This document shows, in pieces, positions 27,621 to 38,870 of a stretch of DNA of 64,000 nucleotides (its first letter is position 1; every line of letters starts with the position of its first letter). The stretch spans positions 11,036,001 through 11,100,000 of the forward strand of contig NC_073409.1 in assembly GCF_028641065.1 (NCBI RefSeq), read 5' to 3'. The translations under genes and the position numbers were made by a program. The DNA is from Leucoraja erinacea (Eukaryota). The notes below the pieces were generated by a model. That model searched no databases. It saw nothing but the letters and a program-made list of their open reading frames with translations, and had not been told where the DNA came from.

Positions 27621-28151
27621 GTGAGTGGTTAAAAAAAGTGACTTCTAATTGACATTACACCTCCCTCTCACAAAGGCAAAATAGTCAGGAAGGTGACGAA
27701 GGGAGGAGGGTAGGCGATGAGGGAGAGCTGTGTGTCATACATGGGAAATTATGAAACGGGAAGATGCCAATGACAGAAGCCTGGTGACATGAGACCCATA
27801 ACTATATCTTTTTTTAAAATCTTATTTCAAATTTTTGGCCACCTAGTGCATCTCTGGCAGCATGTACTGGAGGAAATGCTCTTGTGTGACGTGTTTCCTC
27901 CATCAGCTGATTTTCCAACATTTTGATAATTTAACATAAATGACTTGCTCATTTTAAATTATAATCTGTAGGTACCAAACTCTGTTCTTTATATTTAAAC
28001 TTAATCTTGAGTCCTTTGATATTTGGATTTTTTTCACATTATATTGATGTGGCTCGTGACCTTCCCATCTGCAAATGGTGCACTGTTCCCCCAGACTAGT
28101 TTGCTGACATACAGACCGTGATTATCAGTGAATATGCCTTGTATTCTGCAG

Positions 28152-28279
28152 ATATGTCCGAAGAAGCAGTGGGTGTGGCCATTGCAGCACCTCCTTCCGA
28201 TGGAGAGGCCAACACAGAGCTGATTGCCTACCTTGCCAAGGTGCTGCAGTTAAAGAAAAGTGAGCTGGTTCTGTACAAG
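28152..28279 (+). CDS. C15orf40: C15orf40 homolog coding exon 3
   Basis: 128 nt, gcag|...|gtcagt; [43 protein letters not shown] (DUF167 AAPPxDGEAN motif). Confidence 0.95.
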
Positions 28280-32400: not shown

Positions 32401-34118
32401 ATTCTCAGGCTCCAAGCCCAGACTGGTTTTGTATTCCCAGGGTCAATATTTATTGATTCACACTGAACCCATAATTCTGACGTGGTTCTGTTATCCAACT
32501 GTAATAAATCTAATTTCTATAGCAAGGCTAGAAATATATCAGCCAGCATCATGCACTCTCAGGAATGCTTTTTTTATTTGTACTTTGTTCATATTTGAAA
32601 GATACAAGCATACAAAAATAAGATATAAACCATATTCAGTGTAAACTAGTCTTCCAGTGTCCATTTGAATATCAATGTCCCGTTTGGTACAATACTAACC
32701 ATTCAGCTACTGGTCAGATTGCTGGTGCAAGTTAATCTCCACAAAGCTTGTAGATGAGAATTAACTAGGGATTAGTCATAGGACGTGAAAACAGTTTATG
32801 TAACCAGAATCCTACTTTTAATAACTGGACAGTACAATATAAAGTTCAGTACCACTTCACAGTGGGGGAGCCGGTGAATCTCCCAGTACTAAAGAACCCA
32901 TGAGGTCAATTAACTTTAAAAAGGTATTAACTTACAAATATCTGAACGCGACTTAGAGTACACATTTTTCAGTTCACCACATCTTCCCTCAAACACCTAC
33001 CACCAGGAGAGTCTCAGTACTAGTTGCCAACCGCAAAGTATGTCAAGGGCAATGGTGTTAAAGCCAGTGGACATGATCACAAAACTATCTTCTCCAAGAG
33101 GGGAAGACTTGTTCAAGTACAGGAGCCTCAGATCTCCCAGTGAAAGATTACTCCCCTCACAGATTGATTGAACACTCACTCTATGTTAAACTGCAACATT
33201 CAGATGGGAAGTGTAGAAATGTCTTTGTTCTTGTTGCTTATCTCATTGCGATATCCTGGTCATTAGTTTCAACCAGTTGCTGTGTATTTGCACACTGGTC
33301 CAGTCCTGGCCATCACAGCCACCAACCATGTGCACATTCAGCAACGCAAGCTCTTGCACAATGGTGCTAAAATTAACATACAATCTAAACAACGATGACA
33401 ACCATCTACAACGGGAATAAACAATCTTTAAAAATCATTAAATTTCTCTTGCATACATGTACGGAAACTAACTGAGGGTAGACACAAAATGCTGGAGTAA
33501 CTCAGCGGGACAGGCAGCATCTCTGGAGAGAAGGAATGGGTGACCTTTTGGGTCGAGATCCTTCTTCATTGATCAAGGAAACTAATTGGTGGGTAAAAGC
33601 CATTATCCTTGGTAAAGAATCACATAACATCAGAATGAGGTTTACATAAGGCTCCATCACACACCCGTCTGTAGGTTCCTGATGTCATTTAATTCTCTGC
33701 CTCATTTTCTCTCATTATATAATCTGATCTCAGATTGCAAATTAACAGGGACTGAGAGTCTCCATTTGGATCCCTGGTGAGGGCGCTGAATCAATGCAGA
33801 ATGAATCAGTGATCTGGAGTTTAACACTCCATATTCTAAATCAGTTTCAGCTAACACCATTGAGCAGCAAAGGAGAGGAATGGTCAAGGTCAGTAACCTA
33901 ACAACTTGCAGCAGCATTTCTCATTCCAGACATCAGCAAATATTAGCTGTAGGAGAGATAAGAGGACTGTTTATGATCAATGTTTGCTGCTGACAGGAGA
34001 GGGGGGGGTCATCCATCCTGTAATCCTGCTCAATAAAAGCATTCAATTTTTTACACAATTGAATACCACAATTTGACCATGTACATGAACTGGTTTAACG
34101 GAGTAACTAACCACAAGT

Positions 34119-34124
34119 TTTATT
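34119..34124 (-). terminator. Candidate polyadenylation signal of RAMAC
   Basis: AATAAA on the minus strand about 210 nt after the RAMAC stop codon. Confidence 0.55.
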
Positions 34125-34331
34125 GCACAGTACCAGGTAGAATCACCCACAGGTGCCACACACAAACCATTAACTTTTCCCCAAACTACCTAACCTACTA
34201 ACAGCAATAATGCCGAAATGGGATTTTTGTAAAATGAGACTGTTGCAATCCACTTAATTCCAATGGCATTTCACCCAGTTGATTGATTCAGTCAGTCGTG
34301 TTTCAGTAAGTAGCGATGGGTGGTTTGACTG

Positions 34332-34470
34332 TCAGTGCGAATTGTTCCCTTGGCTGTACGATTCATAAGAGCCAGATCGATTGCTGCTGCGATCTCTGCC
34401 TTGCCACCGCTGGTTATTTGACCAGTGGCGATTATCACTGTGCCCTCGATGGAATCCATGGTCGTGTGAC
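34332..34470 (-). CDS. RAMAC: RAMAC (RNA guanine-7 methyltransferase activating subunit) last coding exon
   Basis: ttttag|G TCA CAC...CAC TGA; SHDHGFHRGHSDNRHWSNNQRWQGRDRSSNRSGSYESYSQGNNSH*, an N/R-rich region like the RAM RNA-binding region; phase 2 fits the upstream exon. Confidence 0.85.
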
Positions 34471-34519
34471 CTAAAAATTAAAATAGGAAAATCTCAGGCT
34501 GCACTTCTTCCAATCTTGT

Positions 34520-35370
34520 GTACTGCAATCGGTGTTCAATGTGGTCATGGCATCAATTAGCCTACATTCTCAAAGTCATTTGTATATATGACAAGCAACA
34601 AAGGTCCCAGCACCAATACCTGCAGTACACGAAGGGTTACAAATTTCCGGTCAGAAAAACACCCCATTACCACTACCCTCTGCCTTCTATCACCAAACCA
34701 ATTTTTTATCCACTTTGGATACCAAGTGAGACCTTGTAAAAAGCTAAAGTCCATGTCAATCACACAGCGCTCATCAATTTTCTTTGTTACCTCCTAAACA
34801 AACTCAATCAGATTTGAGAGACAGTATTTACTCTGCAACCGTTTACTCTTTCTAATTTATCCTTGGCATTCAAACATAAATCCTGTCCCTCAGAATCTTC
34901 TCCAACAACCTCCCTATCACTGATTCAAGACTCACCAGCATGTTGTTTATAGGCTTATGCCTACTGCCCGTTTAAATATATGGACAACATCATTAGTTAT
35001 CCTCCAGTCTTCTGGTATCTCAGCCATGTAAATATCTCCATTAGAGCCCAACAATCTCTTCCCTTGCTTTGTATCATATCCTGGGATAGATCCCAATAGG
35101 ACCAGGGAATTTGTCCACCTTAATATGTAACAATTTCTCCAACACTTACTCTTTCCTGACACAGACATAGTTCAGAACATCAGTGTGTCCCTCCCCTACC
35201 ACTACATCCTCCACTTCCTTCTCCCTGGTGAAGACCGATGCAGTCTTCATTTAAGATCCTGCTCATATTCCCTGTCTCTGAAAATAAATTTCCATTTTGG
35301 TTCCTATTCTTTGGGGACCCACTCTTTCCTTAGCTACCCTCTTGCTTCTAACACACTTATAAAAGGTTTG
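34520..35370 (-). mobile_element. Degenerate CR1-type LINE RT fragment
   Basis: ORF remnants WIKNWFGDRRQRVVVMGCFSD...VLGPLLLVIYTNDF and IPEDWRITNDVVHIFK. Confidence 0.75.
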
Positions 35371-35987
35371 GGGAGACACAAGAGACTCCAGATGCTGAAA
35401 TCTGGAGAATAAAACAGTTCAGTTTGGGGGATTTTGATATTCCTATTTACGAATTCCACCCCAACTAAGCTTCTTACACTAAGGCAAACCCATCCAATAT
35501 TGGGAGTTAGAACTCCCACGACTACAACCATGTTGTTTTTACTACTGTGATTTGCCTACATATCTGCTCCTGCGGTTTCTGCTCTCTATAGTATAACCCC
35601 ATCAAAATGATGGAGCCTTTCCTATTTCTAGGTTCTACCCATAGGATAACAGAAAACTACTGTGGGCGGGTGATCAATGATCGGCATGGATACGCTAGGC
35701 CTGTTTCCATTCTGTATCTCTAAACCCGAAATAATATCATAATCCCATGTGCTGATACTTGATCCTGGCTCTTCTCTAACCTGTGAGGCTCCCTGAATTA
35801 AAGTAAATGTAGTTAAGCCTACCAGTCCTCTTTTGCTTCCTCCCCATCCCCCGTCTCAGTCTACCCTGCCCTGCCCAATGAACGTATCTTTCTTTCTCAT
35901 TCCCAACTATTTCCCACTCTCCCAAACGCTGTAACACTAACCCATTCATGTTATTTGATAGTTATGTTATTTGCGCAATCTGGGTAC

Positions 35988-36143
35988 CTGCGGTTCCCAC
36001 CGGATTGGCCCATCCAATCCTCTACAATGGGCGGTGGGTCAGTCGCACTCTTCACCATTGCCTGATACTCCGTGTCAGCTGCCGTGAACCGGTGAGCAAA
36101 CATTTCCTCGTAGTCTGGAGCCAGTATTGCTTCACTGGATGTT
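35988..36143 (-). CDS. RAMAC: RAMAC duplicated RNMT-activation exon, copy B (conserved motif, start ATG replaced by ACA)
   Basis: 156 nt, cccag|A ACA TCC...CGC AG|gtaccc; TSSEAILAPDYEEMFAHRFTAADTEYQAMVKSATDPPPIVEDWMGQSGGNR vs human [42 protein letters not shown]. Confidence 0.85.
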
Positions 36144-37086
36144 CTGGGGACAGAAAGTAGGTAGAGGTTTTATAAGAAATAGAACTCTTCAAAATTTGAA
36201 ACAAGACCTCTCTCTGGTAATGCTTAGGCACCAAGATCAAATGTCATCCTATCTCAGACCATTGTAATATTGCAGCTCTTACAGATCTAGGTTGGGGTAA
36301 ATGGCAAGAATCAACAAGTAGCCCGACACTGCTGTGCTTACCCCCTGTCAATCAAGGGGGATAATAGCTGGAATGTGACAAAGCCCAGCCAATAAAGTAG
36401 ACTGTGATGAAAGAAAGCATTATCATGGATAAGCAACAGGAAAGTTTGAATTTCTTTCATCACGGAAGCAATGAAACATGTAGATAATTTCCCGATCGGC
36501 AGAAGGTCTGCCTTTATGTGGAGCAGCCTGGAGAAAGTTCAAAGCGTATGGGGCCAGACTGACCGGATAACCTGAGTGAGGAGCCATGGGCCCCAGCAGG
36601 TCTGGGCCCCACTGCACCAGCCATACAAAGCTGAGGGGGATACACACACACACATCCAACAGACTCCAAGAGGATTTGGGCCAGGTGGGGGAAAGTGGGA
36701 CTGGCTTGATTAGGCACCTTGGTTGACATGGATGTTGGGCCAGTTTCCATGCTGTTTAGCTCTACGAGTCTCCTGGGTAAAAAAAAAGAAAACCTTACCC
36801 TGATTTATAACATTACTGCTGAACTTCCCATTGACTGCCACTTCAATTCTCCATCCCACTCCCACCTACCAGTTTGTGGCCTTCTCGACTGGTGTTAAGA
36901 GGCTAATTTCAACCTTCAGGAACAGCACATCACTTGTCTGGGTATTTTACGGCTTTCAGCACTTAATATTGAATTATACAATTTTAGGTAAATTGATTTC
37001 TGTTCATATATATTAGACGTAACTTCCGCCTGTATTTTGCAACTCAAACATTTTTTGACTAATATTTCCACTTCACTTCTCATAAT

Positions 37087-37290
37087 GGACACAAAATGCT
37101 GGAATAACAGCGGGACAAGCAGCATCTCTGGATAGAAGGGAATGGGTGACGTTTCGGGTCGGAACCCTTCTTCAGACTGTCAGGGGAGAGGGAGACACAG
37201 AAATAAGGAAGTGTAAGGTGTGAAAACTAGTTACTCTAGCATTTTGTGCCTACAGTGTAAACCACCATCTGCAGTTCCTTCCTACTCACT
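37087..37290. mobile_element. PLE-derived short element with inverted ends and an intact hammerhead-like core on the minus strand
   Basis: Reverse complement of 37143-37180 is ACAGTCTGAAGAAGGGTTCCGACCCGAAACGTCACCCA; ends ggacacaaaatgctgga and ctagcattttgtgcct are inverted. Confidence 0.7.
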
Positions 37291-37512
37291 TCCCCTCAAA
37301 CTGTTTCTGTCCCCAATTAAATATATAACTCAACATGATTGGTTCCCACTATAACAACATATTGTATTAGTTCAGTTACATCTGTATCTCCTTCTGACAA
37401 AAACGATTCTAATTTTCCAACTATTTCCTACTGCTTGAGGACTGCAATACTAACCCATTCATATTATTTGCTAGTGTTAAGTCTGACAAGAGTCAGTGCA
37501 TAAACTGGGTAC

Positions 37513-37667
37513 CTGCGGTTCCCACCAGGTCGGTCCATCCTGTCCTCTGCAATGGGCGGTGGATCAGAAGAACTCTTCACTATTTCCTGAAACTCCGCAT
37601 CAGCTGCCGTGTACCGGGGAGCAAGTATTTCTTTGAAGCCTGCAGCCGGTTCTGCTTCATTGGACAT
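37513..37667 (-). CDS. RAMAC: RAMAC first coding exon, copy A (has ATG, diverged motif)
   Basis: Exon 37513-37668, tccag|A ATG TCC...CGC AG|gtaccc; MSNEAEPAAGFKEILAPRYTAADAEFQEIVKSSSDPPPIAEDRMDRPGGNR. Confidence 0.8.
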
Positions 37668-38334
37668 TCTGGAGACAGAAAGTAGGCAGAAACTTTACAA
37701 AAGGTACAACTCTTAAAAATTTTCAAAACAAGGACTCCAAGATCAAATGTCATCCTAGTTGCGATGTGGCAGTTCTTCCAGATCTAGGTTGGGGGTAAAT
37801 GACAGGTATCAACGAACAGGCCCAGAGATTGCAGGGTTTACCCCCCCCCCCCCCCCCCCCGCGTCAATCGGGGGGAATTAATAGTTGGGATTGTGACTTG
37901 AAGCCAGGTTAATAAAGCTGCCTCTGTGGAGATAGAAACAAGTTATCTTGGATGATCAACCGGAAACATTGAGTCTCGTTCTCCACAGATGCAATGCAAT
38001 GTTCGACCTGCTGCCCTCTGGAAGGCGCTATAGGTGCATCAAATCCAGGACAAACAGACTCAGGAATAGTTGCTTTCCGAGAATTATATCTACTATAAAT
38101 TCAAATTCACACATGCACTGACTACACCGCCCAACACGGACTTCCATCTGTATATATGTATGTAGCGCCGCAGAATTTGTGCACCTATTCCCCCCCCCCC
38201 CATCTCCCTTCTGTTTTTTGTTTTTTTTTCTGTTTCTTATTTTTTTGTGCTAAATTGTATGTATGCACTGAGTACGAGCAGCTTTCAGTTTCACTGTACA
38301 TGTATAGTGACAATAAATGGCATATCATATCATA

Positions 38335-38368
<34 letters not shown>

Positions 38369-38552
38369 AACACGTTAACAATCGGTAGAAGATGTGCGTG
38401 TGGGGTCACTGATGGGATAACCTGATTGTGGGGCCGAGAGTCACGGCCGGACCCACTGCACCGGCCACACACGGCCATGATGGTCGAGGGGACACAGCCC
38501 ACACTCCCCAAGAGGGTTAGTTCCCCCGGAGGCCCCAGACCCGCGCTCGAGA

Positions 38553-38680
38553 CCTCACCTCCCGCCGCCGCCGCCGCCTTCCACTGCCGCCGTGTGCGGC
38601 GAACAAATCCGTCCCCGGTCCGCGGCACTTCCGCTCCCCAGGAACCCGAGTCCGTCCGTCACAAGAAAATGTTCCGTCTT
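38553..38680 (-). promoter_or_regulatory. RAMAC CpG-island promoter and non-coding first exon (donor GAG|gtgagg at 38559/38558)
   Basis: CpG-rich; ETS motif CGGAAGTG at 38626-38633 (-); consensus splice donor; no ATG in the exon. Confidence 0.65.
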
Positions 38681-38870
38681 GTGGCGCTCCCTCGGTGCAG
38701 CCTCTCCGACAATGCGGCGCTCCCTCGGTAACGCCTCACCCTCAGTGCGGCGCTCCCTCAGTGCGGCCTCACCCTCAGTGCGGCCTCAGTGCGGCCTCAC
38801 CCTCAGTGCGGCGCTCCCTCGGTACACCCTCTCCCACAGTGCGGGCTAACACCCCCCAGTGCGATGTCCC
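38680..38870. repeat. GC-rich minisatellite (CCCTCAGTGCGGCGCT / CCCTCAGTGCGGCCTCA units, 16-17 bp)
   Basis: About ten imperfect tandem units are visible immediately upstream of the RAMAC first exon. Confidence 0.8.

Follow-up and report, generated by a model that had tools for sequence, protein, structure and literature searches.

The closest described counterpart of the locus analyzed here is vertebrate RAM, the product of RAMAC (FAM103A1), a tiny but essential cofactor of RNMT. According to the accessible part of PMC3898117, GST-RAM fusions bind and activate RNMT, and the human RAM fragments 1-35 and 20-45 bind RNMT without activating it. In the accessible part of PMC5137418 the RNA-binding tail of RAM is predicted to meet RNA exiting the active site, and single or double substitutions in RAM left the activity unchanged. 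Work on RAM has been confined almost entirely to mammals, where it is known as a protein with a single module.

Related situations are known for duplicated genes and exons. The DDC model describes subfunctionalisation by complementary loss. Mutually exclusive tandem exons, which arise when an exon is duplicated in tandem together with flanking intron, are treated in PMC3342872; the accessible part of this paper also names constructive neutral evolution and ratchets.

We analyzed the RAMAC locus of the skate Leucoraja erinacea in a window of 64,000 nucleotides, which is the whole stretch of DNA under study (NC_073409.1, positions 11,036,001 to 11,100,000). A previous reading of the letters alone, here referred to as the sequence-only reading, had described a tandemly duplicated RNMT-activation exon and proposed a two-module cofactor tuned by splicing. 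Our analysis leads to a different explanation, which we regard as the probable one. The upstream copy A contributes the ATG and otherwise is likely an obligatory leader undergoing decay, the downstream copy B is likely the working RNMT-activation module, and the arrangement would be the outcome of a neutral ratchet and not a switch for regulation.

Structure of the skate RAMAC locus

This RAMAC ortholog lies on the minus strand and is spliced in the order exon 1, A, B and last exon. The exons A and B are 156-nt tandem copies of the RNMT-activation exon of RAM. The following features were assigned:

38559..38660, minus strand: exon 1, non-coding, 5' end approximate; donor GAG/GTGAGG at 38559/38558
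37669..38558, minus strand: intron 1, 890 nt, mostly the 5' part of the duplicated unit
37513..37668, minus strand: exon A, upstream copy; ATG at 37667-37665, decayed contacts, present in contigs of all four runs
36144..37512, minus strand: intron A-B, 1369 nt, GT-AG; joint 36143/37513 in all four runs
35988..36143, minus strand: exon B, downstream copy; ACA at the start-codon position 36142-36140
34471..35987, minus strand: intron B-last, 1517 nt, GT-AG; joint in three of four runs
34050..34470, minus strand: last exon; 45 tail codons, N/R-rich, up to the stop at 34334-34332, followed by 3' UTR
37414..38524, minus strand: duplicated unit on the A side, comprising intron 1, exon A and about 100 nt of the next intron
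35900..36682, minus strand: duplicated unit, B side, from sequence alignment to the A side

Each of the exons A and B consists of 1 nt, 51 codons and 2 nt, is free of stops and is bordered by an acceptor ending in ccag and a donor beginning with gtaccc. Exon A starts with A-ATG and exon B with A-ACA. The copies differ at 31 of 156 nt and are thus 20% diverged. Together with the last exon (acceptor at 34470) they form a continuous frame of 149 aa, whose product matches RefSeq XP_055517261.1 of Leucoraja erinacea at every residue. Both copies passed the Pfam RAM model PF15320, with 31.6 bits for A and 64 bits for B against a cut-off of 25, and both matched chain C of 5E8J, the RAM chain in the RNMT-RAM structure, with E values of 1.3e-4 for A and 3e-9 for B. 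The product of the last exon is rich in N, R and S, lies within the PF15320 match 63-135 and has a predicted RNA-binding role. The sequence-only reading was therefore right about the identity of the gene, the two exons with intact AG/GT sites, open frames and the motifs quoted for them, the complementary losses of motif and ATG, and the 149-aa frame.

The duplication of the adjoining intron is confirmed as well, and the unit turned out to be larger than had been noted. The intron copies at 37669-37999 and 36144-36476 share 237 matches with 66 mismatches (K2P 0.26; range within the intron 0.26-0.29), and the whole duplicated unit gave a BLAST E value of 2e-62. On the donor side about 100 nt are duplicated (to 37414 for A and to 35900 for B). 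An additional piece at 38396-38524 corresponds to 36544-36682 with a score of 107, compared to a maximum of 56 in 200 shuffles. The unit begins about 35 nt below the exon 1 donor, and its A side includes an unaligned repeat at approximately 38000-38395. Within intron A-B lie the second copy of intron 1 (36144-36682) and, near 37090-37290, a high-copy repeat.

Further repeats were seen in the introns. High-copy interspersed repeats, an (AT)n run and a G run are located at 37090-37290, 35640-35800, 38025-38200, 38340-38365 and 37840-37860, and the repeat stretches showed very high depth in the mapping of transcript contigs. Near 36690 a repeat-like stretch also adjoins the B-side duplicate at its 5' end.

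At the 5' end of the gene, the X1 contig passes from 38577 into exon A, and 15 letters from the end of a GGC repeat stand in between. No ATG is present in 38557-38720 and no transcript contig covered 38661-38800. In the 3' UTR, AATAAA is found at 34124 and contigs extend beyond 34050, the provisional end of the exon. Differences from the window in the 3' UTR (X1 and X3 at 34320-34321, 34100 and 34145; X9 at 34320-34321) represent alleles or assembly errors. About 6 kb downstream, an exon with DUF167 (PF02594) at 28148-28273 on the plus strand is arranged tail to tail with RAMAC. C15orf40 bears DUF167 and neighbors human RAMAC, and we take the exon found here to be part of its likely ortholog.

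A genome search with B returned, among the matches listed, only the places of A and B. The RAMAC locus thus appears to be orthologous and single. The genome matches of RNMT, at least five, were all within one locus. A second RNMT gene as partner for A was considered and dropped, since the five matches listed all belong to that locus.

Splicing of exons A and B

The transcript data were contigs from four of 24 runs, which came from four studies with three organism labels and whose status as RNA was guessed. They were treated as transcripts because the contig joints have GT-AG ends. Assembled contigs of this kind drop rare isoforms.

The A-B joint was found in all four runs and the B-last joint in three, in each case with GT-AG ends. 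In run X1 a single contig of 1336 nt spans exon 1, A, B and last exon, and in run X3 a single contig of 1268 nt spans A, B and last exon. In run X17 the contig with A continues into B; its depth was 373.8 compared to 378.6 for B plus last exon, a weak measure that gives a weak hint of near-full inclusion of A. Furthermore, three Logan contigs of 1.26-1.31 kb encode the 149-aa form. The expectation that A and B are joined in one message is borne out, and mutually exclusive use of the two exons is at variance with the A-B joint in every run.

The contig of run X17 with exon A opens with 24 letters placed at 38440-38463 on the minus strand plus three others, with non-canonical intron ends. This start could reflect the use of another donor within intron 1, or the letters may be misplaced. 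A short way upstream, near 38479, there is an ATG.

The sequence-only reading had suggested that splicing tunes cap methylation: skipping of B would give a weak activator, and skipping of A an N-terminally cut form starting from Met14 of B. Both skip forms are indeed in frame, with 97 aa for A plus last exon and 84 aa for exon 1 joined to B. Tandem exon duplicates are also generally tied to mutually exclusive splicing according to the accessible part of PMC3342872, and RefSeq isoforms of Carcharodon have different numbers of modules. However, neither an A-last nor an exon 1-B joint was among the joints listed for the contigs of the four runs, in which rare forms are dropped, and contigs crossed A-B unbroken in all four runs and B-last in three. 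The codon of Met14 of B is ATA (Ile) in the organism of run X17. A word search with A among proteins of 81-261 aa returned only the 149-aa cluster, although this search was weak and missed the Rhinoraja protein too. We therefore consider splice tuning very unlikely, while low-level or tissue-specific skipping of A or B may occur.

A false duplication in the assembly, which the sequence-only reading had already judged unlikely, can practically be dismissed. The copies are 20% diverged, they are joined in spliced contigs of four studies, and both were found in three skate genera.

Divergence of the copies and the proposed ratchet

The pairwise dN/dS of A and B was 1.18 (24.5 non-synonymous and 6.5 synonymous changes). 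Because this value is based on few sites and is not separable by copy, we turned to a comparison with outgroup residues and with the intron rate. Residues were counted as new if unseen in any of six single-module elasmobranchs, and the neutral expectation was derived from half the intron K2P of 0.26.

In the window, A carried 15 new residues and B six (p=0.078), with approximately 14 expected per copy at the intron rate. The corresponding numbers were 15 and four in Amblyraja (p=0.019), and in Rhinoraja 21 and 17 for two A copies and four for B. Within A, conserved and variable columns were altered alike (6/21 and 9/30, p=1); on the 21 conserved columns the difference between A and B, six against two, was not significant (p=0.24). 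The stem branch of A had a length of 0.30 and that of B of 0.057. Core scores were 49.6 for A and 103.7 for B, with single modules ranging from 86 to 120. In run X17, all six differences in A were non-synonymous, which, like the further contact losses in Rhinoraja given below, indicates that decay continues.

The RNMT-contact positions, as given in the accessible part of PMC5137418, are 7, 8, 11, 15, 18, 19, 25, 26, 29, 32, 37-40, 42 and 43. Six of these 16 positions were altered in A and none in B (Fisher p=0.018), and B equals the single-module rays at all of them. The contact changes of A are F15L, F19Y, Y26F, V40A, W43R and Y11F, to which H17P and E12K are added outside the contacts. Since single-module species also have P7 and I29, these two residues of A do not figure among the changed contacts. 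Y11F is the residue of the solved RAM chain, and F19Y is found in lizard modules. W43 is absent from all four A copies, and both A copies of Rhinoraja have in addition lost R18 and E25, which are polar contacts; A of the window retains R18, E25 and PPI.

The full 52 codons were kept in every A copy seen. No indel separates A from B, compared to 5.7 expected from the flanking intron (P ~0.003; 0.06 for the A lineage alone). Taken together, A appears to evolve at about the neutral rate in its residues with its frame held. Purifying selection on the residues of both modules was not found, A being approximately neutral with its conserved columns unspared. By its own account the sequence-only reading of a functional two-module cofactor would be refuted by neutral evolution of A, and the 15 new residues against about 14 expected come roughly to that. 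Its statement that both exons are needed holds for A as source of the ATG and the frame; for the residues of A it does not.

A could still be a weakened but functional second module, acting through added avidity, through a bridge to a second RNMT, or through competition with B for the groove that damps activation. A still passes PF15320 and matches chain C of 5E8J, and its changes lean conservative (mean BLOSUM +0.31 compared to -0.4 expected, P ~0.06). The human fragments 1-35 and 20-45, which bind without activating in the accessible part of PMC3898117, indicate that partial modules can bind, and the unchanged activity of the RAM substitutions in PMC5137418, as far as its accessible part goes, counts against an inactive A. 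The same holds for Y11F and F19Y as residues of working or kept modules, for R18, E25 and PPI in A of the window, for the full 52 codons of every A copy seen, and for the comparisons of A with B that fell short of significance. Additionally, A is doubled again in Rhinoraja, and lizard models retain two good modules. Against this stand the change of A at neutral rate with conserved columns unspared, the loss of W43 in all four A copies and of R18 and E25 in Rhinoraja, and the upstream copy of mormyrids, which has decayed to a negative core score. On balance we regard a functional A as rather unlikely, and RNMT binding has presumably been lost by A.

The ratchet we favor could have proceeded as follows. 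With an ATG located one base inside an exon of 156 nt, a tandem copy stays in frame. The downstream copy B adjoins the RNA-binding tail and has conserved the RNMT contacts, which suggests that it kept the function. The ATG of B turned into an internal Met and was then lost. From that point on, skipping or deleting A would cost the activator its first 13 residues, and the human fragments truncated at one end or the other do not activate; ACA is not a usual near-cognate start codon. A would thus be locked in because B lost its ATG. Selection would keep the start, splice sites and frame of A and not its residues, in line with the rates. In the protein, B would sit in the RNMT groove and A would hang free as a leader. 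Since GST-RAM fusions work in the accessible part of PMC3898117, and GST is N-terminal as read from the name, an N-terminal leader is likely tolerated.

Distribution of doubled modules and comparison with known systems

Amblyraja radiata (XP_032906311.1) has the same A-B form, with seven residues differing from the window product. Rhinoraja longicauda (XP_078283422.1), a member of the other skate family, has the form A-A-B with 209 aa, in which A was doubled again. Since A-B or A-A-B is present in both families, the duplication appears to be older than the split of Rajidae and Arhynchobatidae. Single-module models were found in seven batoid species outside the skates, including Hemitrygon, Hypanus, two Mobula, Narcine and Pristis, and the event is most simply placed on the skate stem. 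A duplication older than the skates was considered as well. The grouping of A with Narcine and Pristis in the trees speaks for it; a skate-only clade of A and B was not rejected (p-AU 0.08), and this together with the seven single-module species argues against it.

The survey beyond skates combined searches with B (62 matches in a representative protein set) with an HMM scan and covered database gene models only. Multi-module models were present in six lineages: skates, lamniform sharks, lungfish, lizards, mormyrids and hake. The statement of the sequence-only reading that the vertebrate RAMs known to it have one such module does not extend to vertebrates at large, judging by the gene models of five lineages other than skates. 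Among the lamniforms, Carcharodon carries three to four copies and Cetorhinus two, with near-identical modules of 52 aa. Two modules each were found in the lungfish Protopterus, the lizards Phrynosoma, Lerista and Salvator, and the mormyrids Brienomyrus and Paramormyrops. The mormyrids mirror the skates, with Thr in place of the second Met and an upstream copy at a negative core score. In Merluccius (hake) the multi-module model is partial, and Scleropages retains about 27 aa as an N-terminal remnant (shuffle P ~0.004). The models of Phrynosoma, Lerista and Merluccius have odd tails. A 733-aa repeat match was dropped, as it is unrelated to the forward RAM frame.

The RefSeq isoforms of Carcharodon vary in module number, and the lamniform copies may reflect either a recent expansion or the way the genome was assembled. 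The lizard modules are well kept, lie 49 residues apart and form separate m1 and m2 clades.

In trees that left out hake m1 and the Scleropages remnant, a single clade of the twelve upstream modules was rejected (p-AU 1.6e-5). Copies clustered by lineage in lungfish (100/99), lamniforms (99/96) and lizards (94/85), which could also come from gene conversion, and the mormyrid upstream copy formed a long unresolved branch. Decay of the upstream copy was strong in three of six lineages (skates, mormyrids and hake). Lamniforms and lungfish showed slight decay, and two of three lizards showed none or the opposite trend, the upstream copies of Phrynosoma and Salvator having the higher core scores. 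The polarity of decay is therefore not universal. Apart from the lizards as an exception, the database series resembles stages, from near-identical copies (lamniforms, lungfish) over a decayed leader (skates) and a barely recognizable one (mormyrids) to a remnant (arowana). The exon layout described for skates would, judging by the gene models, explain the recurrence in other vertebrates, with the skate polarity repeated in mormyrids.

Extra modules may instead have been favored at their origin, through more stabilisation or activation of RNMT per RAM chain, with a benefit that later lapsed in skates so that A decayed. This agrees with multi-module models in six lineages, with the rejection of one clade of upstream copies and with PMC3342872, in whose accessible part strong recurrence of exon duplication suggests selection. 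However, the recurrence may reflect chance doubling of small symmetric first coding exons, and the near-identical copies of Carcharodon and lungfish may be assembly or model errors. Such an origin is compatible with the ratchet as explanation of the present skate gene, but we hold it to be highly improbable. A bolder and in our estimation unlikely reading is that the module was doubled at least five or six times because a two-module RAM binds two RNMTs or holds one tighter, with lizard RAM truly bivalent and skate A a de-tuned site, still able to bind RNMT, whose effect is to damp or buffer cap methylation. As far as sequences can tell, the lizard protein is the strongest candidate for true bivalence. 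Whether one RAM chain serves two RNMTs could be addressed with the lizard and shark proteins as natural tools, copy A amounts to a naturally occurring multi-site mutant of the RNMT interface, and the recurrent doubling of the RAM module in vertebrates deserves attention.

In the literature searched, with subscription journals lying mostly outside it, doubled RAM modules were not found. The 149-aa form itself is already known as automatic annotation: the RefSeq skate models are named activating subunit(-like) or uncharacterized, and these names are silent on the duplication.

Compared to vertebrate RAM, the skate protein carries the same RNMT-contact module in B followed by an N/R-rich tail. 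It differs in its doubled activation domain, in which the first copy has decayed and the second has lost its initial Met. With 45 aa the tail is short, and it lacks a PY motif, whereas human RAM needs PY-NLSs for nuclear entry. The PY motif is absent from Leucoraja, Amblyraja, Rhinoraja and the single-module Hemitrygon and Narcine, and is present in Pristis and all four sharks listed. The PY-NLS is therefore a human feature that is not kept across the family and has no bearing on orthology. Nuclear import in the PY-less rays must work otherwise. In the stretch 34334-34309 (minus strand), RAM of Leucoraja and Amblyraja stops at a TGA where Rhinoraja and rays read Trp and seven more residues, and the old RAM tail is partly readable past this TGA.

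With the mutually exclusive tandem exons described in the accessible part of PMC3342872, the skate exons share the way they arose, an exon having been copied in tandem along with adjoining intron. In contrast to these, the skate copies are co-spliced, the duplicated exon bears the start codon, and the result is a split of start from activity instead of alternative isoforms. With DDC subfunctionalisation and constructive neutral evolution the locus shares complementary losses that make both copies necessary. Here, however, the copies are two exons inside one frame, and the only evident job of A is to provide the ATG and the frame. Skate RAMAC would thus be an exon duplicate made irremovable without a new function, with the start codon in one copy and the activity in the other, and offers a compact test case for a neutral ratchet versus selection.
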